From: a virus
Strand: one strand, 5' to 3'
Length of the DNA: 64,000 nt
IMG/VR virus record: IMGVR_UViG_3300037882_003154
Location: 57,374 to 121,373 of that record
Shown: positions 5,058 through 55,813 of the stretch, one piece after another
Layout of the letters: every line of letters starts with the position of its first letter
How positions within the stretch are numbered: position 1 is the first letter of the stretch
The notes under the pieces: model-generated
Databases searched by the model: none
What the model was told of the DNA's origin: nothing
Seen by the model: the letters and a program-made list of their open reading frames with translations, nothing else
Translations under genes and position numbers: made by a program

Positions 5058-6010
5058 TATTGTTCTTGCCTCAAGTGGTCTAAAAGAAACATAATTGACT
5101 CATCTAAGGTATAGTTTGGATACCATCCTGTTTGGTTAATAAATTTAGTGCAATCGGGTATCTGATAAGATATATCTACTGGTCGTAATAGTGACTTATC
5201 TTCTTCGGTAATAATATTGGCTTTAGTATATGTTTTTAGTAGCTCTAGAAATTCACCAATAGATATAGTATTATCCCCACCTATATTATATATCTGACCA
5301 ACATGACATTTTTGTGATGCCACCCAGTAAGAGGACATCGCATCACGAACATCTATCAGTGTTCTTACAGGCTTAAGATTGCCATGCTTCAAAACCCTTG
5401 CATTGCTCCGCTCAATATCTATAATTTGCTTAGCAAAAGCGGTAGCGAATATGTCTTTTCTACGGGGGTTTATATAGCTAAACATCCTTGTTGTTATAAC
5501 TTTGAAACCATAAGAGTGAAAATAAGCTAAGCCGATTTTTTCTTGTGTTAGTTTAGATACAGCATATATGTTCTGGGGCTCTACCGGATGGGTCTCTGAT
5601 ATTGGGCACTCATCTTTGGAAGCAGCCCTGTATACCTCTGAGGTCATACAGTTCTGTATTATTGGATCTATACCAACCATCCTAATTGCTTCAAATAGGT
5701 TGATTGTATTATTTGTGTTATTTTGCAATACGGCTATAGGATTAGAAAAACATACCTTAACATTCGCATGAGCTGCGAGATGAAAAACATAGTCTGGTTT
5801 TACATCTTTTATTGTGTGATATGTAGCGCTTAGATCATTAAGATCGCACTCATGTAATACCACATCGTCTTTAATCTCTCTTAAATTGTGTGCCGTTGCT
5901 GTACTATGCCAACGACTCACACCATGTACCTCTACATTGGTGTGTGACAGTAGATATTCGGCTAAATAAGAAGCCCCCGATCCAGTAATTCCTGTTATTA
6001 AGGCTTTCAT
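5057..6010 (-). CDS. gmd: GDP-mannose 4,6-dehydratase (Gmd/Rmd family)
   Basis: ALITGITGSGASYLAEYLL, VFHLAAHANV, TSEVY, YAVSK, GNLKPVRTLIDVRD. Confidence 0.75.
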   Translation of the reverse strand: MKALITGITGSGASYLAEYLLSHTNVEVHGVSRWHSTATAHNLREIKDDVVLHECDLNDLSATYHTIKDVKPDYVFHLAAHANVKVCFSNPIAVLQNNTNNTINLFEAIRMVGIDPIIQNCMTSEVYRAASKDECPISETHPVEPQNIYAVSKLTQEKIGLAYFHSYGFKVITTRMFSYINPRRKDIFATAFAKQIIDIERSNARVLKHGNLKPVRTLIDVRDAMSSYWVASQKCHVGQIYNIGGDNTISIGEFLELLKTYTKANIITEEDKSLLRPVDISYQIPDCTKFINQTGWYPNYTLDESIMFLLDHLRQEQ

Positions 6011-6011
6011 C

Positions 6012-7583
6012 CTAATCTCCCAATATCTTTCTTTTAAGTTTAATCTTAGACATATCTTTTATGTTATTTACAGCTACTATACCAAATTTCTTCTCTACCA
6101 AAGATAAATATTCCGGTCCATTAAAATAGATTTGCCATGCATCATCTCGAAACCTTAATATTTCTTCTGCTGTTAGTGTATCTGTTGGTAATGGCAGTGT
6201 ATCATAAGACAAAAATGACCATCCAGCATAGTTTTGTGGCAACTTATATTTTTTTTGTATAGCCTCATAATACAGGGGGCTTCCTGGCAAAGCCTGAGCA
6301 GCATACGCATTGTATGATTCGGTGTTGAGCTCTATGGCTAAATCTAAGGTTTGTTGCATTGTCTCCTTGGTATCACCGGGGAGCCCATATATATAATTTC
6401 CAATAACATTTAGGTCATGCCCCTTAATCTTTTGCACTACATCTCTAATATTCACATCTTTAAAAGAGCCCTTAGATACTTCCTGTCTTATCGCTTGATT
6501 ACCAGCCTCAATACCCAGGGCAAGCCAATGAATACCGGCTTTTTTGAACATATCTAGATATTTTTCTCTAATTGTATCGCATCTACTATAAACCCAAATA
6601 TTTAAGTCACCACCATATCCTCTTTCTATTATTTTGTTCAGTATGGGTTCAAAGTGATATTTATTAAAGAAAAATAGTTCATCTGCTATTCTAAGGGTCC
6701 TGACACCCATCCCATATAATCTGTCTATTTGTTTGATTACATGATCTGGACTCCAATATCGCATTAGATTACTATTTGCGGAATGTATGCCATCACTAGA
6801 ATCGGTTCTATTGATTAGATTAATTATACAAAAAGAGCACTTAAAATTACATCCCAGTGTAGTATATATGGAAGCGAATGGTGTGGTTTTATTGAAATCA
6901 TAGTCGCCATGCCAGATATGAGCCCTATACATATCTAGTGGCTTGTTTTTATATGGCAGCAAGTCCCATGCATAATCTGGGATCTCTTCATCTAATTTAT
7001 CAGATGGTATTATTGATCCTGTGCCATTGTTCATGTGGTGGTGAGACCACCTAAGACATTCATTGCCCTTATATGTATTTGTATATTCTTTATATCCAAG
7101 ACCTGGTATTCTATGTAAATCTGTCTTGAAATCAGTAGACAACAGACAACACAGAGCCCTAACACCCTCATTAATACATACAAAATCTACATATTTGAGA
7201 CCAAGAACTTCATTTGGCAATGCACTGGCGTGACTACCAATAAAACAAATTGGGTAGTTTGGGCTATTTAGTCTTACAAATTCGGCTAGTCTAGTAGCCC
7301 CAACCATTGATGTTGTACCAGAATTTGGGTTCTGTCCATATACGACAAAACAAACAAGTCTGGGATTGACATCTTCTATTCTTTTTAGGGCTGCTTCATC
7401 ATCTAGCTGTTCGGCATCGGCATCCAAAATATTACAGCCGAAGCCCATCCTTTTACATGCAGAAGCTAATAATAGAGCCCAGGTTGGAGGTTCAGTTGCT
7501 GTAAATTTATCACTAAGCCCCTGGTAAATTACATTAGCCGCCCCAGGGTTTATGAAAAGTACATCTACTTGTCTATCTGACAT
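6012..7583 (-). CDS. Cobalamin-binding radical SAM enzyme (class B methyltransferase-like)
   Basis: N-terminal B12-binding-like region (IGSHASALP, DFVCINEG), CNFKCSFC CxxxCxxC motif, LGIEAGN, YIYGLPGDT. Confidence 0.85.
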   Translation of the reverse strand: MSDRQVDVLFINPGAANVIYQGLSDKFTATEPPTWALLLASACKRMGFGCNILDADAEQLDDEAALKRIEDVNPRLVCFVVYGQNPNSGTTSMVGATRLAEFVRLNSPNYPICFIGSHASALPNEVLGLKYVDFVCINEGVRALCCLLSTDFKTDLHRIPGLGYKEYTNTYKGNECLRWSHHHMNNGTGSIIPSDKLDEEIPDYAWDLLPYKNKPLDMYRAHIWHGDYDFNKTTPFASIYTTLGCNFKCSFCIINLINRTDSSDGIHSANSNLMRYWSPDHVIKQIDRLYGMGVRTLRIADELFFFNKYHFEPILNKIIERGYGGDLNIWVYSRCDTIREKYLDMFKKAGIHWLALGIEAGNQAIRQEVSKGSFKDVNIRDVVQKIKGHDLNVIGNYIYGLPGDTKETMQQTLDLAIELNTESYNAYAAQALPGSPLYYEAIQKKYKLPQNYAGWSFLSYDTLPLPTDTLTAEEILRFRDDAWQIYFNGPEYLSLVEKKFGIVAVNNIKDMSKIKLKRKILGD

Positions 7584-13764: not shown

Positions 13765-15504
13765 TTATGTTCCACACAAAAACTCCTTATGATTTTCAAT
13801 ATTACTATCTGGTTTAGCATGAGTAATATAATAGGGCTTTTCTCTATTCTCTATACCACATCTTACCTTTTCCCAATTATTGATATTATTTCTCATATCA
13901 AATAACTGTTGCAACATATTATTAAGCTGGAAAGGCTCTGGTGTTGGACGAATTCCCACCATCGAAAAATCATTAATATACATATTGCCGCCATTAACTA
14001 TTTTGCCACCATATGTAAGGCTCTTAACAAGATTAAGCGCAAAATATGTATTGAGCTTTTCTGGCATTCCCAGGACATTCACAATAGCCCAATCAACCAT
14101 CTGAGACATGGATATATTAGATGGATATGTTGTGACAGGATTGTGTAATTTTGGTGGTGATTTCCAGGTTAATCTCCAATCAATGGGCTCCACACTATCA
14201 AAATATGCCATCCATTTTTTCGTTGTCTCTTCCCAATTAAAATGTTTCTCAACACACTTTCTGGTATCAAATCCACGCTTTTTTCTTAATGACTCCGGCA
14301 ATGAGAAAAATTTGATGAGTATATCTACTATTGAATCTGGGTCTGGCTTAGCCCTATGTGTATGTGTTGTTACATCTCTTGATTTAGACAAAAGCTCTAT
14401 TGGATATGCCTTGCATTTATTTATAAAGTCAATAGTACCAGAATAGTTAGTAACAGCCAGTGGTATGCCACACGAAGCCGCTTCTACACAAGGGATGCCA
14501 AACCCCTCTGAAGAAACTGGCTGAACATATAAGTCCATCAAATTATATATAACGCCTAGCTGTTCAGGACTAATGCCATGTTGTGTATTAGGCAACGTGG
14601 CTCCTGGCTGACCACAGTGAGGACAGAACACCCTACTATCAGCCCATAATTCCACAAATATATTGTGGCAATTTCTGCACAAATAGGTAAATAATACCTT
14701 GTGCATTATATTTTCTTCTTGTAGAATTAGTGGTAGGTTCCACCCAAGATCTGGATAAGAAGTATGACAATATAGATAGGTTCTTTGCCCCAAATCTTTA
14801 TTGCTTTTTTCACAATAATCAAGGAATTTTCTAAAAGCCTGAAATAGGTCGGGAAACAGTTTGCGAGCCTGGTTTCGCATCACAGTTCCAACAATATTGA
14901 TATTTTTACCAAACCCAAATTTTGCTTTGAGACCCTGTTTATCAAGTATTGGATTAAAGGTCTTAAAATCACCACCTGGAGGATTGGCTGATAATATTTT
15001 GAGAGACCCGCCGGTTTGGTTTTCTAGTAGACACTTAGCCCATTCAGTATATGTAAAGAGACAGTCCGCCTCCATCATTTGACCTATCCAGTCGGTGGCT
15101 TGTGGCTCACCATCGACGGTTGGCATATAGGCTATTTTATAGAGTGGTCTAAATGGAGAAGAAAACAGATGGGTGCAATACCAAGAATCGCTGATATCAA
15201 ATACTATATCTGGTTTAAAGTCAAGTACAACATCTTCATATCTCCATCCACCAAATTGTGCAAATCCATCTGCATTGTGTTGTGCTATACCGGCTTGGTC
15301 ATTGGGTTCAGGTGCATTAGGATAGACTCGCCAAGGTATAGAATAAGTTCTTTGGTCTGCCAGTGTACAGTATGAGGCGTGTTCCGCAATACAAAATTTA
15401 TTGGTAGCATAGAGCCTATCCAATAGATTTTTGTAATACACAGCATAACCACTAGACAAAAAAGTAGCTTCGCTTCTAGCCAACAGCCTTAATTTTCTAG
15501 TCAC
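13765..15504 (-). CDS. Glycosyltransferase family 4 with internal Zn-ribbon
   Basis: VMRNQARK, EGFGIPCVEAASCGIP; inserted CRNC..(x)..CPHC. Confidence 0.85.
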   Translation of the reverse strand: MTRKLRLLARSEATFLSSGYAVYYKNLLDRLYATNKFCIAEHASYCTLADQRTYSIPWRVYPNAPEPNDQAGIAQHNADGFAQFGGWRYEDVVLDFKPDIVFDISDSWYCTHLFSSPFRPLYKIAYMPTVDGEPQATDWIGQMMEADCLFTYTEWAKCLLENQTGGSLKILSANPPGGDFKTFNPILDKQGLKAKFGFGKNINIVGTVMRNQARKLFPDLFQAFRKFLDYCEKSNKDLGQRTYLYCHTSYPDLGWNLPLILQEENIMHKVLFTYLCRNCHNIFVELWADSRVFCPHCGQPGATLPNTQHGISPEQLGVIYNLMDLYVQPVSSEGFGIPCVEAASCGIPLAVTNYSGTIDFINKCKAYPIELLSKSRDVTTHTHRAKPDPDSIVDILIKFFSLPESLRKKRGFDTRKCVEKHFNWEETTKKWMAYFDSVEPIDWRLTWKSPPKLHNPVTTYPSNISMSQMVDWAIVNVLGMPEKLNTYFALNLVKSLTYGGKIVNGGNMYINDFSMVGIRPTPEPFQLNNMLQQLFDMRNNINNWEKVRCGIENREKPYYITHAKPDSNIENHKEFLCGT

Positions 15505-43011: not shown

Positions 43012-43233
43012 CTATGCTGACTTTTCCATGATATTAGTGAACATCTTCTTGTAGTTTCTTATAACACAATCACAATAGTCTAATTGTGTTTGTGGTTCAC
43101 CATATTTAGAATAATCAATAGGGGCTGGTTGAATCATTCTATAGCCCCGCCCATGACATTTTCTACATGTAGCTTTGGCATATGCATTGGCTTTGCCTAG
43201 CATATCATTAATTTGACTATTTTCCACTTGCAT
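43012..43233 (-). CDS. Small Cys-rich (Zn-finger-like) protein
   Basis: CRKC.G.G...C.C. Confidence 0.55.
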   Translation of the reverse strand: MQVENSQINDMLGKANAYAKATCRKCHGRGYRMIQPAPIDYSKYGEPQTQLDYCDCVIRNYKKMFTNIMEKSA

Positions 43234-43598
43234 TAGCCAGCATCATCCAATAGTGATTGGATTTCCTCTGGTGTGCTATTAGCTGCAACACTCAATACAG
43301 CATTCACAAGCCCACTTGCATTTTTAGCAAAAGCCCTTGGGGACATATCGCCATTATCTACAAGACTTCTGCGTAGATTAAGCCTCACACCTATTCTTTG
43401 GATTAGTGTTGGATTAGCAGCATCGGCTGCAACAGTAGCCGAGTCAGCCTTGCACTTTTGTAGGGCTTGGATCAAAGGAACTAGAGCCTCTGCAATTAAG
43501 ATAATAATTGAGGGATCAAATGCGAATTCTTTATCGCTTGGATGGTTGCTTTGTAGTTTAGCAACAACTTTTTCAGCAAATGCTTGTACTTGGTTCAT
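43233..43598 (-). CDS. Hypothetical amphipathic/membrane-associated protein
   Basis: FDPSIIILIAEALVPLIQALQKC hydrophobic helix. Confidence 0.55.
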   Translation of the reverse strand: MNQVQAFAEKVVAKLQSNHPSDKEFAFDPSIIILIAEALVPLIQALQKCKADSATVAADAANPTLIQRIGVRLNLRRSLVDNGDMSPRAFAKNASGLVNAVLSVAANSTPEEIQSLLDDAG

Positions 43599-43621
43599 TG
43601 TGTATTGACTTTCTTTGTATA

Positions 43622-44014
43622 TTAGTGGTGTGAAACTCTTAGGGTACGAATATTGCGTTGTTTTACCACCACTCTTTGTACATTTCGTACCCGAACACTT
43701 TGGAAGAGATTCTGTACAGAATTTCGTAGATTTTGTAGCAATGGTTCTCGTACTACAACCTTTTGGACTACTTGTCTTTGAACATGTCGAACTTCTTGAA
43801 CTACAAACTGTGGAGCCAAAGCTAGCTTACGCACAACATTAAATCGCACAGTGTTGAAATGTGGTGATAATACCACTCTCTGCACAACAAAATTGTCATG
43901 TGATACACATAGGTTTCTTACGCGTTCAATGCGTAGATTATCGCAAGATTTTACCACAGACCCAAAGGATAAAAATGAGGCGACCAAGGCACCAATCAAA
44001 AAACGTCTAATCAT
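43622..44014 (-). CDS. Secreted low-complexity V/R/Q-rich protein
   Basis: Signal-peptide-like N-terminus; repeated VQRVV/VQKVV/VRVR tracts. Confidence 0.65.
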   Translation of the reverse strand: MIRRFLIGALVASFLSFGSVVKSCDNLRIERVRNLCVSHDNFVVQRVVLSPHFNTVRFNVVRKLALAPQFVVQEVRHVQRQVVQKVVVREPLLQNLRNSVQNLFQSVRVRNVQRVVVKQRNIRTLRVSHH

Positions 44015-44050
44015 AGCATTCCCCTTTTCTCTTATAGTTACTTTGTATGC

Positions 44051-44677
44051 TTACTTTAGCTTAGCCCAATCTTTCAATATAATTACATCTTCATCTGACA
44101 AAGGATCCCCACCCTTTGGCATTTTTTGTTCAAAAGCCTGAATAAAAATATCAAACTTTTGTTCTCGATTCAGTTGAGACAGCTTGTTATCTTTAATGAT
44201 CTCAAGTCCACCATTTATTGTATCCCCCGAATGGCATTTTGCACAGTTCTTTTTTAATATTTCAAGGGATTTTAATTTTAATTTATCTGTTGGTGTTTCT
44301 GGGCTGGCTGGCTCTACTGGTTCAGTATCATCTGGTGATGGATTATCTACTGGTGGTGGAGCATCTGGTTTTGTTGGCAAGGATAGTTTAGAAATCAGTT
44401 TGGCGACTATTTTCTCTGATAATTTTTCTAAATCATCGTCATCAATAGATAGTTCTGCTGAATCTTTAACCCTATAATAATATTCGAGCCCAAGGTCTGT
44501 TACTGGTACCTCAAATATAAAATCATTGTGTGATACAAATCGTCTATCAAAATTCCTACTAATGAACCTAACATTGCTCCGAGCTATGTTGAGCCCAATG
44601 TCACACTGATTGTCACCAGCATTAGCAAAGTTACAAGCGAACGATAAGATTGTGGCTAAGAATATTTTTTTAAACAT
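44051..44677 (-). CDS. Secreted monoheme c-type cytochrome (Planctomycete cytochrome C-like domain)
   Basis: Signal peptide ..FANA, Pro-rich linker, LKKNCAKCH (44231..44245), distal KMPK.G.PLSDED...LKDW. Confidence 0.8.
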   Translation of the reverse strand: MFKKIFLATILSFACNFANAGDNQCDIGLNIARSNVRFISRNFDRRFVSHNDFIFEVPVTDLGLEYYYRVKDSAELSIDDDDLEKLSEKIVAKLISKLSLPTKPDAPPPVDNPSPDDTEPVEPASPETPTDKLKLKSLEILKKNCAKCHSGDTINGGLEIIKDNKLSQLNREQKFDIFIQAFEQKMPKGGDPLSDEDVIILKDWAKLK

Positions 44678-44690
44678 TGAATGCCCCCTG

Positions 44691-46340
44691 CTACTTGTTT
44701 ATCCAATCAAAGTCTTGTTCTTTAATTGTAATCTTGAGACCATTGGCTACAAAAACATAGAGACCCTCAGAATTCTTATTTGGGCTCTCTAAGGTAATTA
44801 TATCACCGATTTGTAGTTCTGCAATTACACTTTCTTGTTTTGTAATCTTAAGATGTTTTTTAATCCTAACTGATAGTGGATTGACATCTTGTGTTTCTGT
44901 CTTGGATGTTGGTGGAGCCCTTTCTATTCTATGTATTAGCAACATAGCTTGAGCAAATATGCCACTATCTAGATCTTCCCACACATCTCTATTTATTGAT
45001 TTTTCTGTTTTTACTAGAGCCCCAAGTCTACCACTAATAGTTGGTGTACATTTGGTCTTAAAATCATCAACAGACAGCCCACATTCATATGCGGCATGAG
45101 AGATAGATAGAGATCTTTCATACCACTTAAGGATCTCTTGGTATAGTTTGGCATTCTCTAAACCACTTAGCCCATTAATAGACTGTACAGCCCCATTAAA
45201 TATCTCTTTATCAGCCGCAAACAACTTGCCCATAGGGCTCAGATAGAACCTTTCTACAGCAATTTGATATTCTTTGTTATATGTTAACAACTCTACACCA
45301 GATTTTAAATGTTCGCTTAGAGCATTGATGGGAATATTGATAGCGTCTGCATGGCATATAACACAAGATCTAGCGGTTCTAACCCGTATATCTTTAGTGT
45401 CCGTTCTATCCCAAACCACCGTTGGATCACCAAATTCGACACGTTTATTCTTACCATCATATAGAAAATACACCTGGAGACCTAGTTTGTTGGTAGTAAA
45501 CGTCTCACCTGCATCTCTGTCATTACGAGATAAGCCGGTTGGGTCTAGATTTTCGATATAGTCTTGGGCTCCTTCCGATGTTTTAACATCTGAAGTTTCG
45601 TAATAATAACCGAGCTCTGTTCTTGTTCTTGATATTTGTCTATTATTCCTAGACACCCCAGACGACCCTTTGTCTACTAATATCCCTTTTTCTATAGCCA
45701 GTCCCTCTATTTTCTTAACATCTACACCCCAGGCAGCCCTAAACTCTTCTAGTGTTTTTGGCACACCGGTTTTAGCATATAGTAATTCATAGTATAGTGG
45801 TGGCAATTCCCTATCAACTTGTTTTGTTACATCACTAGTATGAATGATAAACCAATCGGCTCTTACTATTGCATTTCCAGCCAGAGCCCTTAGTAATTCA
45901 TAATTTTGATATTTTATCCAAGGCTCTCTAAAATATGGCTCATGTATACTGACTTTTTCCCAGGCTTCTGGGGTCCAGCCGTAATCTCGTATATCAATCC
46001 ACCAGAGATCATTGTCGCCCTCTACTTTTCTAGCCTTTTGTACAATATTCTCATAGCTTAAACTATGCATCCAAAAGTTAAGAGTTTTAATTATACCATC
46101 TTTAACTTTTATATTTTCTTGTCTATTAATATTTTCATTAGTGATAACAATAGTATCTTCTACTGGAATATTGTACACAGAAAAAAATCTGATGTAAGGT
46201 CGCAAATCTGTCGATATAGTAACTAGAAATTCACTTGCAGCCTCAACTTCTGATTGTGGGCTGTTTATTTTGGCTTCTTGCCCAATAGAAATTCCAGTGA
46301 GGCAAAAAACAATTGCCAAACTAAAGATGAGCCTAAACAC
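44691..46340 (-). CDS. Secreted 549-aa protein with single CXXCH heme-c motif
   Basis: Signal peptide; RADWFI..LYYELL, SGVSRNNR, GGE-like AGE, GLQVYFL, SCVICH (45351..45365); possible C-terminal SH3-like region. Confidence 0.7.
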   Translation of the reverse strand: MFRLIFSLAIVFCLTGISIGQEAKINSPQSEVEAASEFLVTISTDLRPYIRFFSVYNIPVEDTIVITNENINRQENIKVKDGIIKTLNFWMHSLSYENIVQKARKVEGDNDLWWIDIRDYGWTPEAWEKVSIHEPYFREPWIKYQNYELLRALAGNAIVRADWFIIHTSDVTKQVDRELPPLYYELLYAKTGVPKTLEEFRAAWGVDVKKIEGLAIEKGILVDKGSSGVSRNNRQISRTRTELGYYYETSDVKTSEGAQDYIENLDPTGLSRNDRDAGETFTTNKLGLQVYFLYDGKNKRVEFGDPTVVWDRTDTKDIRVRTARSCVICHADAINIPINALSEHLKSGVELLTYNKEYQIAVERFYLSPMGKLFAADKEIFNGAVQSINGLSGLENAKLYQEILKWYERSLSISHAAYECGLSVDDFKTKCTPTISGRLGALVKTEKSINRDVWEDLDSGIFAQAMLLIHRIERAPPTSKTETQDVNPLSVRIKKHLKITKQESVIAELQIGDIITLESPNKNSEGLYVFVANGLKITIKEQDFDWINK

Positions 46341-46353
46341 ATTGAGCCTTTTT

Positions 46354-47265
46354 CTAGATTTTCACTACCCTATATCCAGGGATTGTAATAGATTCCACTG
46401 AACCGACTATCTTTATTATAGTCTCATGGGATGGATTTGGTGTGGGGTTTGGGGTTGGTGGGGTTGGAGTTGGGGTTGGGGTTGGTGGCGGATTGATCGG
46501 TGGCACATTTTGTGGTTGACCATATAATCTCTGGAGCCTTGGTATATCATCATTTTCCTGTGGCTTATCTACATTGGGATTATAGTATGGTGCTAGAAGT
46601 GCCGATTGTATTTTGGAATGGTTTAATCCAAGATTATGACCAACCTCATGGCAATGAACGTTCCTGAGCAATATGCCCCTCTTGTTCTTGTTATCAATCC
46701 ATGTCTCAGCCAAATCTAATGTTAGCGTTAGTTTGCCAGTAAAGCTAGGTGAATTGGGCAAATATGCATAAGCTAATACGTTCCCAGGAGTACCAAGCTC
46801 TTCACTAGCAGCCCTACTAGTTAAGATCACAAGATTTGCATTATCAGAAAAAACCTCTCTAAATTTAATGCCACAAACAGCAGATATAGAGTCATAAGAC
46901 CGTCTATATATGTCCCTCTGTTCTTGTTTTGTTAATCCATCAACCCATTCAGCAATATAATAGCTCAGTTCTTTAAGAGCCCATTTATTAACAGATGTAG
47001 CAGGTGTATTAGGACCTCTGCGCCAGAAAAACTCAGGAACATCTGGGTGGGCGCATCTAGGATAGTTCATAGCCCTAAATGTCTTGAGACCGACACCATT
47101 TTCAACTATATTGGCATTATATTGAAATTCTTTAATAGCCAAAGACACTTCGTCATCCGTGGCATCATCTGGTAATCTATAGTAGTGTTTCAGATATGAT
47201 AGAACATATAATAGATTGTCTTTGGCTTTGGTTAGATCAGCCTCTAAAAAGTGTTCTAGTCCCAC
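46354..47265 (-). CDS. Matrixin (M10/MMP-like) metalloprotease with propeptide
   Basis: AIKEFQ..M.YPRCAHPD propeptide, KW..L.Y, LAYAYLP, HEVGHNLGLNH, ALLAP, DDI..Q.LYG, Pro/Thr tail. Confidence 0.88.
   Translation of the reverse strand: MGLEHFLEADLTKAKDNLLYVLSYLKHYYRLPDDATDDEVSLAIKEFQYNANIVENGVGLKTFRAMNYPRCAHPDVPEFFWRRGPNTPATSVNKWALKELSYYIAEWVDGLTKQEQRDIYRRSYDSISAVCGIKFREVFSDNANLVILTSRAASEELGTPGNVLAYAYLPNSPSFTGKLTLTLDLAETWIDNKNKRGILLRNVHCHEVGHNLGLNHSKIQSALLAPYYNPNVDKPQENDDIPRLQRLYGQPQNVPPINPPPTPTPTPTPPTPNPTPNPSHETIIKIVGSVESITIPGYRVVKI
46431..46500. repeat. GGGGTT-type low-complexity repeat encoding a Pro/Thr linker
   Basis: tggggtttggggttggtggggttggagttggggttggggttgg encodes PPPTPTPTPTPPTPNPTPNP on the minus strand. 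Confidence 0.8.
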
Positions 47266-47274
47266 AATTACCGC

Positions 47275-47538
47275 CTACGGATTAGAAAACAGCTGCTTAA
47301 AAAACATAAACATCAGTGTTATAAATGGGGCTATTAGACCAGCTAAAAATCCCACAACACCAGCCTTAACCTTCAAGCCGTTTATATCTAAGGCTATCGG
47401 TTGTAATTTTGCTTCTAGGTCTCTGAATCTAGTGTCTAGCTTCACGTCTAGATTCGAGAATCTTTCCGCCAGATCTTCAAGTGCATTCAGGACGAACTTT
47501 TTGTTCTCAACCCAATCGCCGTTTTCAATATTTGGCAT
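47275..47538 (-). CDS. Holin-like small protein (coiled coil + C-terminal TM helix)
   Basis: Heptad region followed by AGVVGFLAGLIAPFITLMFMFF. Confidence 0.45.
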   Translation of the reverse strand: MPNIENGDWVENKKFVLNALEDLAERFSNLDVKLDTRFRDLEAKLQPIALDINGLKVKAGVVGFLAGLIAPFITLMFMFFKQLFSNP

Positions 47539-47560: not shown

Positions 47561-48211
47561 CTAAGCCAAAGTACGAGCCGGATAATCCTTAAGTGTTGGT
47601 ATCAATGCCGGTTCTTTGATTACAAATTCGCCAGGGACCCCAATGGTCGGTGAAGCAGCATCATCAGGACCCACACCATTCCCAATACCTATGGCATTGG
47701 CAGTAAAATAGTTCTTGTTACTATATGTCAAAACAAGTCTTGAACTGTGTCTACCGGCACTATTTTGTAATGAGAATGTATAAAGATGGCTTGTTCGGAT
47801 CACAACCACCTTATTAACTCTACGACGATTGCCAAAATCAGCAGCACCACTGTTCATAAGTGTATTGGGCAATCCCGCTAGGGTGTCGGACTGTCGTATA
47901 ATAACATATTTGCCCTTGGTCATAGAGGCAAAAACGCCGCTATTAAGCACCTTAAATGTTGAAGAACGAGTTGTGGTTACGGTAGCCCCATCGCCAGAAA
48001 GTAGATCTGCAATTTGATCCGCAGTCATCGGATTGGTAACTTTACTACCATAAAATCCATGAACAGCAAGATTGGTATAACTAACATGTTTTGTAATTGG
48101 GCTGTTTGAGGCGATATTGCCAGCAAAAGCCATAGCCCCACCATTATTACGAAATGCATTTGCTGAGATTACTTTACTAATACCAGTTCTGCTGTTTGAA
48201 ACAATAGCCAT
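47561..48211 (-). CDS. Hypothetical protein, possibly virion-associated
   Basis: Small-residue-rich composition, AASPT.GVPGEF..DYPART tail; preceded by the GGTGTATTT motif. Confidence 0.5.
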   Translation of the reverse strand: MAIVSNSRTGISKVISANAFRNNGGAMAFAGNIASNSPITKHVSYTNLAVHGFYGSKVTNPMTADQIADLLSGDGATVTTTRSSTFKVLNSGVFASMTKGKYVIIRQSDTLAGLPNTLMNSGAADFGNRRRVNKVVVIRTSHLYTFSLQNSAGRHSSRLVLTYSNKNYFTANAIGIGNGVGPDDAASPTIGVPGEFVIKEPALIPTLKDYPARTLA

Positions 48212-48256
48212 ATTGTATACCTCTTTACATACTTTTGCGTGATTACTCTATTCAAT

Positions 48257-48265
48257 AAATACACC
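48257..48265 (-). promoter_or_regulatory. Recurrent GGTGTATTT motif, copy upstream of 48211
   Basis: Identical 9-mer also at 48937..48945 (minus) and 56120..56128 (plus), each in an intergenic gap upstream of a gene. Confidence 0.5.
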
Positions 48266-48275
48266 ACCGGGGCTT

Positions 48276-48920
48276 TTACAAGATATTTTCTGCTTGTTTA
48301 GAGTAGTTGAATCTAGCTCCATAAATACCGGCGCTACGTAGCAATGGAAGGTGTCTCTTATTTAAAAGTTGGCTATAACAAATTGTGTTAATGCCTATTT
48401 TTTGAACAGCCTCACATGCTATTATATTCTCATTTGGGTCATCTGCAAACACACCCGAAGAACTAATGATGGTTGTTATACCGGTCTTTTGCCTAATTAA
48501 TGAGCAGATGGCAACAAAGTCTTGAATGCTGAATAGTTTATAGTCTACAATGAATCTGATCTCTATTTTGTTTGTATGGGCTAGTGTGCTACAGGTATTT
48601 AGATCATTAAAAAAATTTTTCTTATCATTATTTGTTAGATAAGTGTGGTTTATCACAACATCAACAATATCACAGTTTTGTTTAGTAGACTCTAAAATAG
48701 CATGTAATTTTAAAGGAATGCTATCATTTCCATATGGATAGTTAATTAGACTACCAAATTTAGTAAGAGTTTCAACTTCTTTTAAATATGGTCGGGCTTT
48801 AAAGGCATATCCAACTGGTACACAAAAAGAATCAAAAGAATGCGATGTGGCTAAGTGTGCAGCCTCAACAATCTCTTTGTAGTTAATGTGGTGTGAAACA
48901 CAGCAAATTTCTAAAATCAT
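48276..48920 (-). CDS. Deoxyribose-phosphate aldolase (DeoC)-fold protein lacking catalytic lysines
   Basis: FDSFCV, INYPYG, VDVVIN, IRFIVD match DeoC; the KTSTG motif appears as ISSSG. Confidence 0.7.
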   Translation of the reverse strand: MILEICCVSHHINYKEIVEAAHLATSHSFDSFCVPVGYAFKARPYLKEVETLTKFGSLINYPYGNDSIPLKLHAILESTKQNCDIVDVVINHTYLTNNDKKNFFNDLNTCSTLAHTNKIEIRFIVDYKLFSIQDFVAICSLIRQKTGITTIISSSGVFADDPNENIIACEAVQKIGINTICYSQLLNKRHLPLLRSAGIYGARFNYSKQAENIL

Positions 48921-48936
48921 AGTGTACCTCTAAAAG

Positions 48937-48945
48937 AAATACACC
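48937..48945 (-). promoter_or_regulatory. GGTGTATTT motif upstream of the DeoC-like gene
   Basis: Lies about 17 nt upstream of the ATG, before the AGAGGT RBS. Confidence 0.45.
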
Positions 48946-48946
48946 C

Positions 48947-49519
48947 CTAGTTGGTGTCTTGTGTTGTGTCAATATGCTTGATATCTTTTTCTAGTCTATA
49001 GTCCCAGTAACCATCTACAACACCATATTTTATAGCCTCTTTGCTAGTCAACCACCAGCCCTTATTAATTCTGCCCAAAAAGTCTTGTTTTTTCTTGGTT
49101 GTATGACATCCACAGGCTTTGCAAACTAGAGAATTAATTTCATCAGATCTTTTTTCTAGGTGCTCGCTCATTATTTTTACATTGCCAGCACGATCTTCAT
49201 TAGTGGCATAAGACATCGGATGTACCATAATAGTTGAGTTTCTAGTACAATATCTATGACCATGACTGCCCAACACTAATATATCAGCAGCCCCAGAACA
49301 AGCCAAAGAATAACAAATGGTATGAACGGTTATACCTATGGATTGTAGCCCTAGCATTTCATCTATAATAGCACAAGCGGCATCAAAGCTACCACCATCT
49401 GAACATATGTAAATATATATGTCCTCGACGCCAATGTCAATAAGCCTACGAATCTTCCTGATTACCTTTAAAGACAATCTGACACTTATATTATGAAATA
49501 GATATATGCGTGGATCCAT
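48947..49519 (-). CDS. clpP: ClpP-family protease
   Basis: IYICSDGGS, LACSGAA (Ser), IMVH (His), EAIKYGVVD; catalytic Asp position appears as Gly. Confidence 0.82.
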   Translation of the reverse strand: MDPRIYLFHNISVRLSLKVIRKIRRLIDIGVEDIYIYICSDGGSFDAACAIIDEMLGLQSIGITVHTICYSLACSGAADILVLGSHGHRYCTRNSTIMVHPMSYATNEDRAGNVKIMSEHLEKRSDEINSLVCKACGCHTTKKKQDFLGRINKGWWLTSKEAIKYGVVDGYWDYRLEKDIKHIDTTQDTN

Positions 49520-49538
49520 AGGACCTTCAAAAACAGAA

Positions 49539-50228
49539 CTAGTCTAGGTAGCTGGTAAGAGATCCCCCTACATTTTGTTGTGATTCTTTTAATACTTCCA
49601 TATAATGCTGAAATTCTGGTGTGTCTTCTTCTGATACAACCACCTTTTTTTTACCATTGGGCAATATGTATTCAGCCCAATACTTAGATTTTATGGTTAT
49701 TGGTTGGTTTTCTGATACAATACTCGAAGCATAAATCTCTTCTTCGATCTTTGTGCTCTCAAAAAATTTATTAATATCTTCTCGTATCTTTCTGGTTGGG
49801 TCAAATGTAGAATCGGGATTTTTGCTATCTTCGTCATGGTCTGGTGATGACAGAAATGCTTTGCCAAAACCAATCAGAAATCTATATCTAGTTAATATTC
49901 TTAGGATTTCTACACCAGTAAATCTATTTAGGGCATTTGTGATATCGGCATTGAGATTAAAATTAGTGTGACCTATCCAAATTTGAAATGACTTGCCTAT
50001 GTCTGTTTTGGGATTAAATGGAATAGGCGAGCCATGTGCAACCATCATCTTGGGCTCTACATCTGGGTCTTCTATGTCGTATGATTGATTAATTAATTGT
50101 AAGTTACCCTGATTATCTCTGAAAGTATCGCCCTCAGATAAAAATGACATCATAGCCTTAAAATCTTTAATGGGAAATACTGATGGGTTTTCCCACTTTT
50201 CCCAAATAATTCTGCGTTTTTCTGACAT
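49539..50228 (-). CDS. Hypothetical protein
   Basis: 229-aa ORF coupled to thyX. Confidence 0.6.
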   Translation of the reverse strand: MSEKRRIIWEKWENPSVFPIKDFKAMMSFLSEGDTFRDNQGNLQLINQSYDIEDPDVEPKMMVAHGSPIPFNPKTDIGKSFQIWIGHTNFNLNADITNALNRFTGVEILRILTRYRFLIGFGKAFLSSPDHDEDSKNPDSTFDPTRKIREDINKFFESTKIEEEIYASSIVSENQPITIKSKYWAEYILPNGKKKVVVSEEDTPEFQHYMEVLKESQQNVGGSLTSYLD

Positions 50229-52347: not shown

Positions 52348-53514
52348 TTAAAAGAGTGAAGAAATAAGTTGGTCGGCTGTGTTTTCCCAAGAAAACCTTT
52401 TAGATGTTTCAAGGGCTCTTTGAGAGATTGTTTGATTGACTGACTTGCTGATGTCTGAATGAATGTGTTTCATACAGGTGATAATATCATTTTTTTGTTT
52501 TGGACCGATATGAGCCCAATTGCCCTGATTAAAGAAAAACTTTCCATCATAGGCTGGTTCAACCTCATCTATATCAATAAGATAGCAGTTTTCTTCTGTA
52601 CAAAATTCTGTGTGACCACTATAATTAGTAGCTATTACTAATTTGCCCATAGCCATAGCTTCCAAACATGGTAAATCCCATCCCTCAGCCTTACTAATAG
52701 ATAATACACAATCTACCTGTGACATTACCTGGGCTATTTCTACTTGGGTTTGGAATCTAGGTAATATTTTGATTTTTGAGCCCAGTTCAGAATTTTTGTA
52801 AAGTGATAACCACTCTTGCATTTCTTCTTGTGTTACGAAAAAAGAGTGTGGTGTAAGCCAGAGTTCAACGGAATCATTCTCGTTAAACGCATCTGCGAAT
52901 ATCTCATGTATTATATCGTGAGACTTGCGAATTTCGAGCTTGCCCGGCAAATAAAATACTGTTTTTACATTTGGGTCTCTAAAATTTGTGCTAGGCTCTG
53001 GTCGAATATTTTCATTGAAGATATCACGATCAACACCAAGTGGTATTATGTGATAGTTATTTACATCAATTTCTTTACAGTTGTTCAATACATCGGCAGC
53101 CCACCGACTACAAACAAATATTTGGTGGAGCCCATTTAAACTGTTAATTTCATGTGGTGCAAACTTATCTAGTTCAAATATAGGAAACCCCACTCTCCTA
53201 CCATACCCTACAGATTCATGTAGTAAGTGCTGATGAAATATTCTTAGTGTTGGAGCCCTACGATCATAGTTACATTTGTTCTGTATGGTTGGTACTAGAT
53301 ATTGTTCAACCAATTGATTTATATAGTTGGGATCTTTGGATATATGTGACATATGCCATTCTATTGTCCTTTGTTTATCGTTGATGTTTGGTATATCTAT
53401 TGGAAATAGTGACACATTAACACCATTATCTACTAATGCCCTAAGAATATTCCATCCGACAAGCCCATAGGACAATGGGTTTATTGGAGCCATTAAATTT
53501 AGATTCAGGTTCAT
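52348..53514 (-). CDS. Glycosyltransferase family 4 (outside the main island)
   Basis: GKLEIRKSHD, SKAEGWDLPCLEAMAMGK; similar to 12389..13540. Confidence 0.85.
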   Translation of the reverse strand: MNLNLNLMAPINPLSYGLVGWNILRALVDNGVNVSLFPIDIPNINDKQRTIEWHMSHISKDPNYINQLVEQYLVPTIQNKCNYDRRAPTLRIFHQHLLHESVGYGRRVGFPIFELDKFAPHEINSLNGLHQIFVCSRWAADVLNNCKEIDVNNYHIIPLGVDRDIFNENIRPEPSTNFRDPNVKTVFYLPGKLEIRKSHDIIHEIFADAFNENDSVELWLTPHSFFVTQEEMQEWLSLYKNSELGSKIKILPRFQTQVEIAQVMSQVDCVLSISKAEGWDLPCLEAMAMGKLVIATNYSGHTEFCTEENCYLIDIDEVEPAYDGKFFFNQGNWAHIGPKQKNDIITCMKHIHSDISKSVNQTISQRALETSKRFSWENTADQLISSLF

Positions 53515-53774: not shown

Positions 53775-54077
53775 CTAAAGTGTTACTATCTCATTGTGGA
53801 ATGTTTCTTGAACATTCTGTTCAATAACAAAGTGGGCTATTCTAATCAAAACCTCTATTGGCACCCCATTTATTTGCTTGGGGACTCCCCTAAGTTGGTG
53901 GACAAACTGGTTGGGAAATTTAATCGTACAGGGCTTTAGTTCATCAGTTGTAATAATTGGCTGATATTTTACTGTAATATCACCAACAAACTGTCTTTGG
54001 TTGTCAACATCCCACTGTATTTGGGCTACTTCTCTAATACTAGCAAACCTGGCTTGTCTTTTACTAGGTTCTGACAT
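53775..54077 (-). CDS. Hypothetical protein
   Basis: ORF in operon. Confidence 0.45.
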   Translation of the reverse strand: MSEPSKRQARFASIREVAQIQWDVDNQRQFVGDITVKYQPIITTDELKPCTIKFPNQFVHQLRGVPKQINGVPIEVLIRIAHFVIEQNVQETFHNEIVTL

Positions 54078-54960
54078 TCAGTATTTCTGCAAGCTTTTTC
54101 TTATTATAATTGAACAGAAAAGGAAATTCCTTGGTTGCACTCTCATCTGGTAGATAATTAGCCCCAGTATCATCTACGACCATTTTAGCACGCTTGTTTT
54201 TGTCTGGAACACCAACAGATGGGTCTATGAGCCATTCCACATCATGTTTCTTACACCACTTCTTAATCCTGGTCATCGGTACGGTTAAATTAAACATTTC
54301 ACCAGCACCACGAACCAACATACCAGTATATTTGCCGTCTGTGGTAAAAACACCACCACCCGACGATCCTGGGAAAGCCCCAACAGCCACCTGACAATAT
54401 GGCTTATTATCAATGAGTCTACCATTTTGGCTAACAATACCCTTGGTCAATGAATTGTGACCATCGAGCCCCAAGAAAGACCCTACGTGGTATAGGTCCG
54501 TACCAATAACCGGGTCCGAATCTGATAGATTAAACTCTACTGTTCCTTGTATTAAATTGCTCTTATATACCTCTAGTATGGCAATATCATCGCCAGTTAA
54601 ATGATCACTAAATTTAATGATCTTGGCATCAAAGAACATCTGACCAACCCTACGTCCATCTTCTTGTATTTCCTTGACTATTTTTGCATCATTAAACTCT
54701 ACACGATCAACAACAATGCCGGTGGTCGAATCTACACCCTTATTGGTATATCTAAGGCTTCTGACAACATGTCCTGCGGTTAGAATAAATTGTCGATTAG
54801 TCCCATCTACATTACGGGTTACAACAACCCCGGAGCCAGAACCAGCACTAGTTACCACCGTCACACTAACATTCTGTAGACCACTAATTACAGTGTCTTG
54901 GGCTATTGCTGTTGATACGAATAGCATAAGTGAAAACATGATGCTTACAATACTTTTCAT
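54064..54960 (-). CDS. Secreted trypsin-like serine protease
   Basis: Signal peptide MKSIV..AIA, LTAGHV (His), DDIAIL (Asp), PGSSGGG (Ser). Confidence 0.88.
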   Translation of the reverse strand: MKSIVSIMFSLMLFVSTAIAQDTVISGLQNVSVTVVTSAGSGSGVVVTRNVDGTNRQFILTAGHVVRSLRYTNKGVDSTTGIVVDRVEFNDAKIVKEIQEDGRRVGQMFFDAKIIKFSDHLTGDDIAILEVYKSNLIQGTVEFNLSDSDPVIGTDLYHVGSFLGLDGHNSLTKGIVSQNGRLIDNKPYCQVAVGAFPGSSGGGVFTTDGKYTGMLVRGAGEMFNLTVPMTRIKKWCKKHDVEWLIDPSVGVPDKNKRAKMVVDDTGANYLPDESATKEFPFLFNYNKKKLAEILNVRT

Positions 54961-54973
54961 TTTAAATCCTTTC

Positions 54974-55813
54974 TTAGAGAAATACATTAACCAAATTACA
55001 ATAAAATTGCTCTGGGTCTATACACTGTAGACCTGACATTTGACCATCATTAACTTCTACTAGAATCCAATCATCTGAATCTTCTTTTTGGGCTATATCC
55101 AAAACAAAAAATGGCACATGCTCACTAATTATATTCGCTATTTTATTGACAAAATCAAGACCCGCTGCGGTCATCTGAGCCCTATTTATTGTATCCTCTT
55201 CGGCGATTTCCCAATAGTATCCATAGTCTATAATTTTATTTTTATAAAAGAAAAATCGCCATTCATTAGAAAATCTCATGCCACCCACACCAACTTCTAG
55301 TGTTTTCAGTGGTACAAACTCTCTAAATATGACACCCTGTTGGGCTATATTGTCATCAGACATTAACTCCGAGGCAATTAAAAGGGCTTCTTTTCTATCA
55401 CGGGCAAACATCTTTGTAGCCCATTGGTTCTTTTTGGAGTTTGTCTTGCCTTTAACAACAAATGGACCATCGTGGTCACATTGGCTCAGGTCATGGAACC
55501 AAGTTTGTGGTGTGTGCTCTATAACATCATTGTACCATAAAAAGTCTGCTATATATTTGTGTTGTTTTGGGCTGTTTATTAACTCGTGTCTGAAAAACCC
55601 CAGATCATAATTCACTTCCTGGTAATATGGAAGCACAGAATATCTGCCTAAAACACCTTGATATCTGGTGGTAGTGATCGCAATATTTAACTTAGGAAAA
55701 TCTAGCTGGCAGCGAGAGGTTATACAATCAAAATATTTGCTGGCAATGTTAAATTCTTCCTCATTCCATTTATTTTTACGAAAAAGAATTTTTGGGAAGA
55801 TATGATTTAACAT
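54974..55813 (-). CDS. ATP-grasp protein (R2K/DUF4343-like)
   Basis: FVVK, FREFV, EWRFFF, FFVLDIA, ILVEVNDGQMSG. Confidence 0.8.
   Translation of the reverse strand: MLNHIFPKILFRKNKWNEEEFNIASKYFDCITSRCQLDFPKLNIAITTTRYQGVLGRYSVLPYYQEVNYDLGFFRHELINSPKQHKYIADFLWYNDVIEHTPQTWFHDLSQCDHDGPFVVKGKTNSKKNQWATKMFARDRKEALLIASELMSDDNIAQQGVIFREFVPLKTLEVGVGGMRFSNEWRFFFYKNKIIDYGYYWEIAEEDTINRAQMTAAGLDFVNKIANIISEHVPFFVLDIAQKEDSDDWILVEVNDGQMSGLQCIDPEQFYCNLVNVFL

Follow-up and report, generated by a model that had tools for sequence, protein, structure and literature searches.

The window analysed here is a 64,000-nt stretch of viral DNA (bases 57374-121373 of a 133,464-bp IMG/VR viral contig with an estimated completeness of 85%). 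Between positions 43233 and 47538 it contains six open reading frames (ORFs) on the minus strand, separated in transcription order by gaps of 9, 13, 13, 36 and 23 nt. They encode an 87-amino acid (aa) protein with one transmembrane (TM) segment, a 303-aa zymogen of the matrix metalloproteinase (MMP) type, a 549-aa exported haem protein that we call X, a 208-aa cytochrome c, a 130-aa protein rich in Val, Gln and Arg (V/Q/R) and a 121-aa helical protein. A first-pass annotation had described these co-oriented, closely spaced genes as a candidate phage system, and all six ORFs are indeed present. Because almost every gene of the window lies on the minus strand, their shared orientation and tight spacing are not special; the conserved synteny of the block in other phages, on the other hand, is far beyond chance. 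At its centre lie three consecutive genes for exported proteins (X, the cytochrome c and the V/Q/R-rich protein) which, with the MMP as an optional member, form a real and undescribed cassette outside the known kinds of phage system. We tentatively read it as a mobile, moron-like cassette supplying a haem unit to the host envelope. The features of the three core genes are as follows.

44691..46340, minus strand: core gene 1, protein X, 549 aa, an exported haem protein
46281-46340, minus strand: signal peptide of X (residues 1-20), called by a hydrophobicity heuristic
44928-46274, minus strand: c-type haem domain of X (residues 23-471), absent from the family libraries searched
45207-45785, minus strand: cytochrome P460/c'-beta-like centre of X (residues 186-378), suggested by structure comparison
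45351-45365, minus strand: invariant CXXCH motif of X (CVICH, residues 326-330), from the alignment
44694-44888, minus strand: SH3b-like domain of X (residues 485-549), from structure and profile, with predicted wall binding
44051..44677, minus strand: core gene 2, monohaem cytochrome c, 208 aa, with a signal-peptide-like N-terminus
44288-44377, minus strand: Pro-rich linker of the cytochrome c (residues 101-130)
44231-44245, minus strand: haem motif CAKCH of the cytochrome c (residues 145-149)
44120-44122, minus strand: Met186 of the cytochrome c, candidate distal ligand in a conserved Met-Pro
43622..44014, minus strand: core gene 3, V/Q/R-rich low-complexity protein, 130 aa, with a signal-peptide-like N-terminus

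Protein X and its exported companions

Signal peptides were called by a hydrophobicity heuristic and by eye rather than with a dedicated predictor. On this basis a scan of the whole genome (133 kb) gave four proteins with a signal-peptide-like N-terminus, three of them neighbours within the cassette. The first-pass annotation had spoken of two secreted CXXCH proteins. This stands insofar as the 549-aa and 208-aa proteins each have a signal-peptide-like N-terminus and one CXXCH motif; the larger of the two, however, is not an ordinary cytochrome.

Homologues of X number 70 in a set of 5.8 billion proteins, and nearly all are unnamed. The CXXCH motif is invariant in 29 of 29 aligned homologues, together with a set of charged residues that includes R234, D251, E279, E419 and R451, and the same alignment contains no invariant Met and no invariant second His. 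The combination of a single invariant CXXCH with no conserved sixth ligand suggests that X holds an open ligand-binding or catalytic haem and is not a plain electron carrier. No model for the haem domain exists in Pfam, NCBIfam, PHROGs or PADLOC, and comparison of the X sequence with PDB sequences returned SH3 domains only. The AlphaFold2 (AF2) model of the whole protein has a predicted local distance difference test (pLDDT) value of 90. Foldseek searches with models of X against PDB, BFVD and the Swiss-Prot part of AFDB gave SH3 domains or nothing, and residues 23-471 had no Foldseek match in PDB.

For residues 193-368, an exhaustive comparison of the whole model with known structures suggested cytochromes c'-beta and P460. 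Residues 186-378 were modelled alone (pLDDT 92.7) and compared with 48,161 chains; the top five were all cytochromes c'-beta or P460, with Z values of 5.6, 5.0, 4.7, 4.3 and 4.0 over 102-110 aligned residues, and the next unrelated chain followed at 3.6. Two of these five had already been found with the whole model. The haem motif of X lies inside the matched region, near its C-terminal end. Since all five come from one tiny family of beta-sheet c-type haem proteins, a chance origin of the resemblance seems unlikely despite the low Z values, and the centre of X is best described as a P460/c'-beta-like core, which is a statement about its predicted fold and not about family membership. X would thus be a new haem domain built around such a core. 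The five chains (8brk, 6hiu, 7s5o, 6amg and 2je3) would share with the centre of X, as modelled, a c-type fold rich in beta-sheet and a single CXXCH near its C-terminal end. P460 and c'-beta cytochromes are five-coordinate haem proteins, and X resembles them in having no conserved sixth ligand; it differs from them in showing no sequence match and in embedding the module in a domain of ~450 aa with additional N-terminal alpha/beta and C-terminal helical parts.

The SH3b-like domain of X aligns with 9ovi over 62 of 67 residues (Z 6.8, root mean square deviation 2.4) and matches the SH3 domain of the cell-wall hydrolase 2kq8 in a profile comparison (E 3.9e-4); the Pfam family SH3_3 was matched in 11 of the 29 homologues. 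A profile of the central part of X recovered 3,454 clusters at 50% identity (E <= 1e-3). Cellular relatives in AFDB and the ESM Atlas contain the same ~450-aa domain joined to PSCyt1 cytochrome c domains, WD40, DUF4384 or a Ser/Thr kinase, and a Pfam scan of distant relatives extends this list by LCCL, beta-helix/NosD and FGE-sulfatase. In such proteins the place of the SH3b domain is taken by LCCL, beta-helix, FGE-sulfatase, WD40 or DUF4384. The family has many paralogues (at least five copies in one 10.4 Mb genome), and a search of 151 genomes from the phylum of one cellular homologue found X in only 3.

These fusions provide a Rosetta-stone link to the phage cytochrome c, because PSCyt1 or Cytochrome_CBB3 domains lie within the same polypeptide as X. 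Cellular proteins of this kind, from Planctomycetota, Myxococcota and Pseudomonadota, have the same X domain (TM-score up to 0.83) and likewise pair it with a cytochrome c of the PSCyt1 type. The cellular proteins carry this cytochrome c as an N-terminal fusion and have LCCL, beta-helix, FGE-sulfatase, WD40 or DUF4384 as C-terminal module, or else an attached Ser/Thr kinase, whereas in the phages the cytochrome c is a separate gene, SH3b forms the C-terminus of X and the V/Q/R-rich protein comes next. At one cellular locus (L018, homologue P0069) the PSCyt1+X protein adjoins DUF4384, CHAT (caspase-like), DUF4189 and a long TPR protein, a neighbourhood that is reminiscent, by analogy, of conflict or signalling systems.

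The 208-aa cytochrome c consists of a signal peptide, a short V/Q/R-like segment, a conserved GLxYYY motif, a helix, the Pro-rich linker and a C-terminal cytochrome c domain. Its C..CH and 'MP' are kept in at least 85% of 16 phage cytochrome sequences, and it matches Cytochrome_CBB3 with E 1.2e-5 at 26.0 bits, just under the cut-off of 27. Judged from these motifs, it fits a His/Met electron-transfer cytochrome. PSCyt1 (PF07635) had no match to the protein at E <= 0.1 and was found only in the cellular X fusions; the phage protein may be likened to the PSCyt1 module of these fusions as an analogue, short of family membership.

That the block also encodes a secreted V/R/Q protein was borne out by the signal-peptide-like N-terminus and V/Q/R-rich composition of the 130-aa product. 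It is basic (22 Lys and Arg against 5 Asp and Glu) and has a Cys shortly after the predicted signal-peptide cleavage site. Searches with hidden Markov models (HMMs) found no homologue because the sequence is of low complexity. The copy in a Limnoglobus provirus carries a plain run of VQR repeats, and analogous low-complexity exported proteins are encoded at L017, L011 and LR756511.1 (L numbers denote the loci compared here). The protein was considered as a lipoprotein or spanin and rejected, as its Cys is not part of a lipobox and its C-terminus has no TM segment.

Conservation and genomic position of the cassette

Seventeen loci were compared: the window, three found by exact-protein look-ups and 13 from IMG/VR, with their ORFs searched by iterated HMMs. 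A single-protein scan of the viral collection had returned no related locus, and a narrower alignment gave those from IMG/VR. The cytochrome c gene lies directly behind X in all 17 and in LR756511.1 (18/18). Directly behind the cytochrome c a composition scan found an exported V/Q-rich ORF in 15 of the 17, and inspection added L014. The MMP gene stands beside X, upstream of it, at 12 of the 17 loci; at L004 the two are separated by a 587-aa gene (5278-7041) whose product has no signal peptide and no Pfam family and looks beta-helix-like by eye. Homologues of the 121-aa protein occur at 8 of the 17, always directly behind the V/Q/R gene, and the 87-aa gene was found in this window only. Co-conservation of the block, on which its interpretation as a system depends, therefore holds for X, the cytochrome c and the V/Q/R protein, is frequent for the MMP, extends to part of the loci for the 121-aa protein and fails for the 87-aa protein.

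The MMP is dispensable. Whole-record searches of G156, at 99% completeness, and of G164, which is 100% complete with terminal repeats, gave no Peptidase_M10; both genomes keep the haem pair. At L029, the closest relative sequenced on both sides (X 73% identical), an unrelated 97-aa gene occupies the place of the MMP and 87-aa genes, while the 208-, 130- and 122-aa genes are kept, the last at the position of the 121-aa gene. Among 50,697 GenBank phage records X was found in one, an unannotated 595 kb phage, and the MMP in none. In this uncultured 'huge phage' (L028, LR756511.1 477275-490744) three consecutive genes encode exported proteins, namely a 611-aa X, a 243-aa cytochrome c and a low-complexity protein of 204 aa in which AAPV and NVVVxNG are repeated, and there is no MMP. 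The cassette tolerates insertions. Genes for RRXRR (HNH-like) nucleases lie beside or inside it at L005 (297-1295, upstream of X) and L031 (9536-10471). A 327-aa neighbour at L009 has no Pfam family, and a 213-aa gene at L002, considered as a C92-type amidase, was rejected with no Pfam match (PF05708 is also absent from the genome of the window).

The position of the cassette varies. In the window and at L002-L004 it lies between ThyX/DeoC-like genes and those for dCMP deaminase and ribonucleotide reductase (RNR), at L015 it follows directly on a Baseplate_J gene, and at L016 it belongs to a provirus within the Limnoglobus roseus PX52 chromosome (Planctomycetota, Gemmataceae). There the order is tail assembly chaperone, tape measure, three unassigned genes, MMP, X, cytochrome c, VQR protein, collagen-like tail fibre and O-acetyltransferase. 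Morons such as lambda lom classically occupy a tail position of this type. The change of place from phage to phage (metabolism cluster, behind Baseplate_J, tail operon), together with a prophage copy beside a conversion gene, is as expected of a moron. The provirus also shows directly that at least one carrier has a planctomycete host. One relative of the phage studied here encodes a DUF1501 protein, and the host of this phage is probably a member of the Planctomycetota as well.

No phage system of this composition was known to the first-pass annotation, and the searches made here agree: none is represented in Pfam, NCBIfam, PHROGs or PADLOC, and a literature search found no description of the cassette and nothing relevant to it. 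PHROGs, PADLOC and NCBIfam gave no match for the six proteins except weak metzincin matches of the MMP.

The remaining genes around the block are of mixed kinds. The window has a G+C content of ~36%, and a tRNA search found none. Among the neighbours of the block are genes for dCMP deaminase, ThyX, an MT-A70 methylase and a ribonucleotide reductase of class I, as well as for a ClpP-like protease, sigma-like factors and glycosyltransferases. Two glycosyltransferases of the GT4 type (52348-53514 and 13765-15504) match the 'GT4-conflict' family weakly; the second contains a zinc ribbon, and its C..CH is coincidental. Upstream of the cassette, a block at 47561-50228 with genes for 216-aa, DeoC-like 214-aa and 229-aa proteins, none of them with a Pfam family above cut-off, is kept at L002, L003, L004 and L008-L010; the ClpP-like protease within it (190 aa, CLP_protease E 2.1e-25) is common to L008 only. 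The exact 9-mer GGTGTATTT occurs at 45466, 48257, 48937 and 56120, three times between genes and once within the coding sequence of X. When one mismatch is allowed, 30 copies compare with 23.9 expected, which is no enrichment. The exact copy at 48257 precedes the 216-aa gene and could mark the start of a transcript running through the cassette. A search of sequencing runs found no RNA run and one freshwater DNA run with 5% of the words.

Downstream, two small genes follow the V/Q/R gene.

43233..43598, minus strand: clade-specific fourth gene, 121 aa, helical, without a signal peptide

Neighbours of the 121-aa protein in the ESM Atlas are viral hypothetical proteins only. A 73-aa protein (43012-43233), whose gene shares one base with the stop of the 121-aa gene, has a DnaJ-like CxxCxGxG zinc-finger motif; there is a homologue at L002 and there are look-alikes at L003 and L004. 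It was considered as a third cytochrome and rejected: its motif is DnaJ-like, and since it has no signal peptide its C..CH is no haem site.

The MMP zymogen and the 87-aa protein

The two genes upstream of X, and a second protease gene at a distance, have the following features.

46354..47265, minus strand: accessory gene, matrixin/M10 MMP zymogen, 303 aa (Pfam PF00413)
47041-47061, minus strand: Cys switch PRCAHPD of the MMP (residues 69-75)
46618-46650, minus strand: zinc motif HEVGHNLGLNH of the MMP (residues 206-216)
46426-46503, minus strand: Pro/Thr linker of the MMP
46357-46425, minus strand: conserved C-terminal hairpin of the MMP ending IPGYRVVKI (residues 281-303)
47275..47538, minus strand: 'holin-like' gene, 87 aa, tail-anchored
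47296-47364, minus strand: TM segment of the 87-aa protein (residues 59-81)
54064..54987, minus strand: possible distant accessory gene, exported trypsin-like serine protease, 307 aa (Trypsin_2 E 1.1e-15)

The 303-aa protein matches Pfam Peptidase_M10 (PF00413) along the entire profile (positions 1-159 of 159), scoring 86.8 bits where the cut-off is 24 (E 1.8e-24). Its alignments with human proMMP-1 (1su3, E 4e-19, query residues 18-263 on chain residues 12-256) and with proMMP-3 (1slm, E 1.2e-17) extend across both prodomain and catalytic domain, such that PRCAHPD falls on the PRCGVPD of both zymogens. Neither the window copy nor any of the homologues inspected has a hydrophobic N-terminus, and the proposal of a cytoplasmic MMP-type protease with a Cys-switch propeptide is thereby upheld. 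Residues R70, C71, H206, E207, H210 and H216 are invariant in 26 of 26 sequences; invariance of the Cys switch indicates that latency matters for the enzyme. In the Met-turn the family consensus is ALMAPYY; the copy in the window has Leu instead of the Met (ALLAPYY), and P226 and Y228 are invariant. Nearly all of the 26 homologues end in a Pro/Thr linker and hairpin (I.I.G....I.IPGYRV.K). This motif occurs only once in the genome, and the IPGYR tail is absent from the MMPs of L015 and L016. At L006 (6648-7853) and L007 (2553-3803) an FN3-like domain lies between the Pro-rich linker and the C-terminal hairpin.

Vertebrate proMMP-1 and -3 share with the phage MMP the three-helix prodomain with PRCxxPD, the catalytic HExxHxxGxxH and a region at the place of the Met-turn. 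The phage enzyme differs in having no signal peptide, Leu in place of the Met-turn Met in the window copy, and a Pro/Thr linker with a conserved C-terminal hairpin of ~23 aa instead of a hemopexin domain. Its ligands for the structural second zinc and for calcium are not conserved either: Tyr or Trp stands where MMP-1 has the His of 'LAHA', and the H-x-D stretch is lost, sites that are typical of, but not required for, the fold. Karilysin, an MMP-like enzyme of the bacterium Tannerella forsythia, is secreted and has a short propeptide with Asp, not Cys. The M10 catalytic domain is common to both (PDB matches at E about 6e-14), whereas the phage MMPs have a full Cys-switch prodomain and no export signal. 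A 2025 paper on MMP gene transfer makes no mention of phages, viruses or the cysteine switch (PMC12587646).

The 307-aa trypsin-like protease completes the set of four signal-peptide-like proteins. Its gene is followed in the window by one for an ATP-grasp R2K-family protein (279 aa; 54064-55813 for the pair), and a gene of the same kind lies directly upstream of the MMP at L006 and L007. It is present in 6 of 14 related records and is not correlated with the MMP.

The 87-aa protein consists of a hydrophilic, coiled-coil-like N-terminal part of 58 aa, one TM segment and an almost uncharged C-terminal tail of six residues. It has no Pfam or PHROG family and no homologue at the 16 related loci or at L029. 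Its language-model neighbours are small viral proteins, with one cluster in which XhlA makes up 16% (score 0.92), which we treat as a lead only. The earlier designation as holin-like thus finds one TM segment in its favour, and the nearly uncharged tail, the lack of a holin family and the lack of homologues against it; the gene probably lies outside the cassette. Release of the protease by a holin, as further proposed, cannot be the core logic of the cassette, as two near-complete relatives that keep the haem pair have no MMP.

A Pfam scan of the 133 kb genome found no Phage_lysozyme, Amidase_2, SLT, Peptidase_C92, M15_4, M23 or NlpC/P60; a scan for GH108, also without a match, was void since its control matched nowhere. 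PG_binding_1 was found only in the MMP prodomain; the match is weak in the window copy (15.7 bits against a cut-off of 23) but is recorded for many homologues. Complete genomes that have no MMP are likewise without these lysin families, and their absence is therefore no evidence for the MMP as a lysin. The region showed no pair of spanin-like genes. Prediction of a complex between X (residues 23-549) and the MMP gave a score of 0.01 in a run without controls, a value that speaks neither for nor against an interaction. None of the tests made here connects the Cys switch with the cytochromes.

A proposed mobile haem cassette and its alternatives

The reading we prefer, if only tentatively, is that of a mobile, moron-like cassette of phages of Planctomycetota and their kin that provides a wall-tethered periplasmic haem unit, with the latent MMP as an optional add-on. 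According to this model, X, the cytochrome c and the V/Q/R protein would be exported via Sec to the periplasm, where the SH3b domain would tether X to the cell wall. The small cytochrome c, on its Pro-rich tether, would act as a stand-alone PSCyt1-like partner that gives or takes electrons, and the V/Q/R protein and the similar N-terminal segment of the cytochrome would probably form or bind a common scaffold. During infection or lysogeny the haem unit may bind or convert a small reactive molecule, or may sense or modify the envelope. The MMP would be made in the cytoplasm and held latent by its Cys switch; being latent and without a signal peptide, it should act only after the membrane is breached or the prodomain removed.

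Several observations weigh against this reading. All Z values for the P460/c'-beta matches are below the caution line of 8 given for the tool, Foldseek returned nothing for the centre of X, and no cytochrome P460 or c'-beta Pfam family was among the matches of the 29 X members at E <= 1; moreover, the coordination of the haem is not readable from sequence. The fusion of X with a Ser/Thr kinase in some bacteria would suit a sensor more than an enzyme. A scan for a promoter consensus was uninformative, and moron status is drawn from genomic position. The MMP, standing beside X at 12 of 17 loci, exceeds a casual neighbour and may be more integral than an add-on. Finally, ten relatives (four of them near-complete) have no lysozyme, Amidase_2, SLT, M23, NlpC/P60 or M15_4, which leaves room for a role in lysis.

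Such a role, in redox-gated lysis or egress, is unlikely in our estimate. Here a holin would admit the latent MMP to the oxidising periplasm, the haem proteins or a periplasmic protease would open the Cys switch, and the MMP would digest wall or envelope proteins. The MMP does resemble an endolysin in combining a signal-less N-terminus with a PG_binding_1-like domain, but this part is homologous to the inhibitory MMP prodomain, and we know of no M10 peptidase that cuts peptidoglycan. The invariant Cys switch and the SH3b domain of X, which many lysins also bear, fit the proposal, as does the failure to find common lysin families in the genome and its ten relatives; this absence is not diagnostic, however, because G156 and G164, with the haem pair and without the MMP, equally have no common lysins. 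Serine proteases are classical activators of proMMPs, and an exported trypsin-like protease is encoded directly upstream of the MMP at L006 and L007. As to the holin, the XhlA-like layout of the 87-aa protein is a lead only and its gene is unique to the window, while small TM proteins lie near the cassette at L002, L003 and L008. The absence of spanin-like genes and the placement of the cassette here among nucleotide-metabolism genes of the early or middle type also count against lysis. Holin-endolysin-spanin cassettes, among them XhlA-XhlB-XlyA of Bacillus PBSX and PG_binding_1-type endolysins such as phiKZ gp144, likewise set a small membrane protein beside a signal-less enzyme with a PG_binding_1-like N-terminus, and the 87-aa protein has what we take to be the XhlA layout, a coiled coil followed by a C-terminal TM segment. 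The phage locus differs from them in having no peptidoglycan-hydrolase domain and no spanins, a membrane protein that is not conserved, a PG_binding_1-like part that is inhibitory and an MMP that is dispensable.

Improbable, too, is a role in envelope remodelling or superinfection exclusion, in which the V/Q/R protein would form a matrix with the cytochrome tethered in it and X fixed to the peptidoglycan. This protein layer on the wall would alter the envelope of the infected or lysogenic cell, and the MMP would remove it or host surface proteins at the end. The universal V/Q/R protein, the similar composition of the N-terminus of the cytochrome, the SH3b anchor in X and the clustering of three of the four exported phage proteins at the cassette all agree with it, and in the Limnoglobus prophage the cassette has a lambda lom-like position beside an O-acetyltransferase conversion gene. 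It leaves two invariant haem sites unexplained, however, PADLOC and PHROGs show no homology to a known exclusion protein, and self-assembly of the V/Q/R protein is pure conjecture.

We consider it distinctly unlikely that the MMP travels with an unrelated haem cassette as a virion-associated or post-lysis extracellular protease which, anchored by its C-terminal hairpin, acts on protein surface layers of the next host. The lack of a signal peptide despite clear control of latency would be accounted for, as would the Pro/Thr linker, the FN3-like insert of L006 and L007, the strictly C-terminal position of the conserved hairpin and the location of the MMP within or beside tail and baseplate genes at L016 and L015. 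Yet it is precisely the MMPs of L015 and L016 that have no IPGYR tail, and in the phage clade of the window the gene lies among metabolism genes; it adjoins exported, non-virion proteins at 12 of 17 loci and has no structural-protein homology.

A bolder form of the haem-unit model, to which we give very little weight, would make P460-like X with its SH3b anchor, the cytochrome c and the V/Q/R protein a hitherto unrecognised haem-dependent, wall-tethered enzyme system with which planctomycete phages attack or rewire the host envelope from the periplasm and which is possibly their missing lysin; the latent MMP would be a second-stage protease that becomes active on arrival there. Least probable of all is that X and the cytochrome c form a new Sec-exported, wall-targeted, haem-dependent (oxidative) lysin replacing the canonical endolysin: the tested lysin families are absent from four near-complete genomes that all have X, X combines a signal peptide with SH3b as secreted endolysins do, and its invariant charged residues suggest an active site, but the genomes were chosen for having X, which makes the argument partly circular, a scan with few Pfam models misses divergent lysins, a multi-paralogue cellular family fused to kinases and binding modules is unlike a lysin, and we know of no precedent for haem-dependent wall cleavage.

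Among known phage elements, morons and lysogenic-conversion genes in tail regions (lambda lom; O-antigen acetylases) resemble the cassette as we prefer to read it. The L016 copy lies between tail and tail-fibre genes beside an O-acetyltransferase, and position varies between phages; the cassette differs from morons in comprising four genes and not one, in encoding haem proteins and a zymogen, and in occurring also in large, apparently virulent phages.

X represents a haem family of about 3,450 clusters without a characterised member, of which the phage form is compact, split and strongly conserved. Cytochromes of the c type depend on the haem-attachment machinery of the host periplasm, and together with an MMP zymogen bearing a full Cys switch they are unusual phage cargo. 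We know of few studied phages of Planctomycetota; for the lysis route of those described here the cassette is one candidate among several. The cultured Limnoglobus roseus PX52, which carries the cassette in a prophage, offers an experimental entry point.

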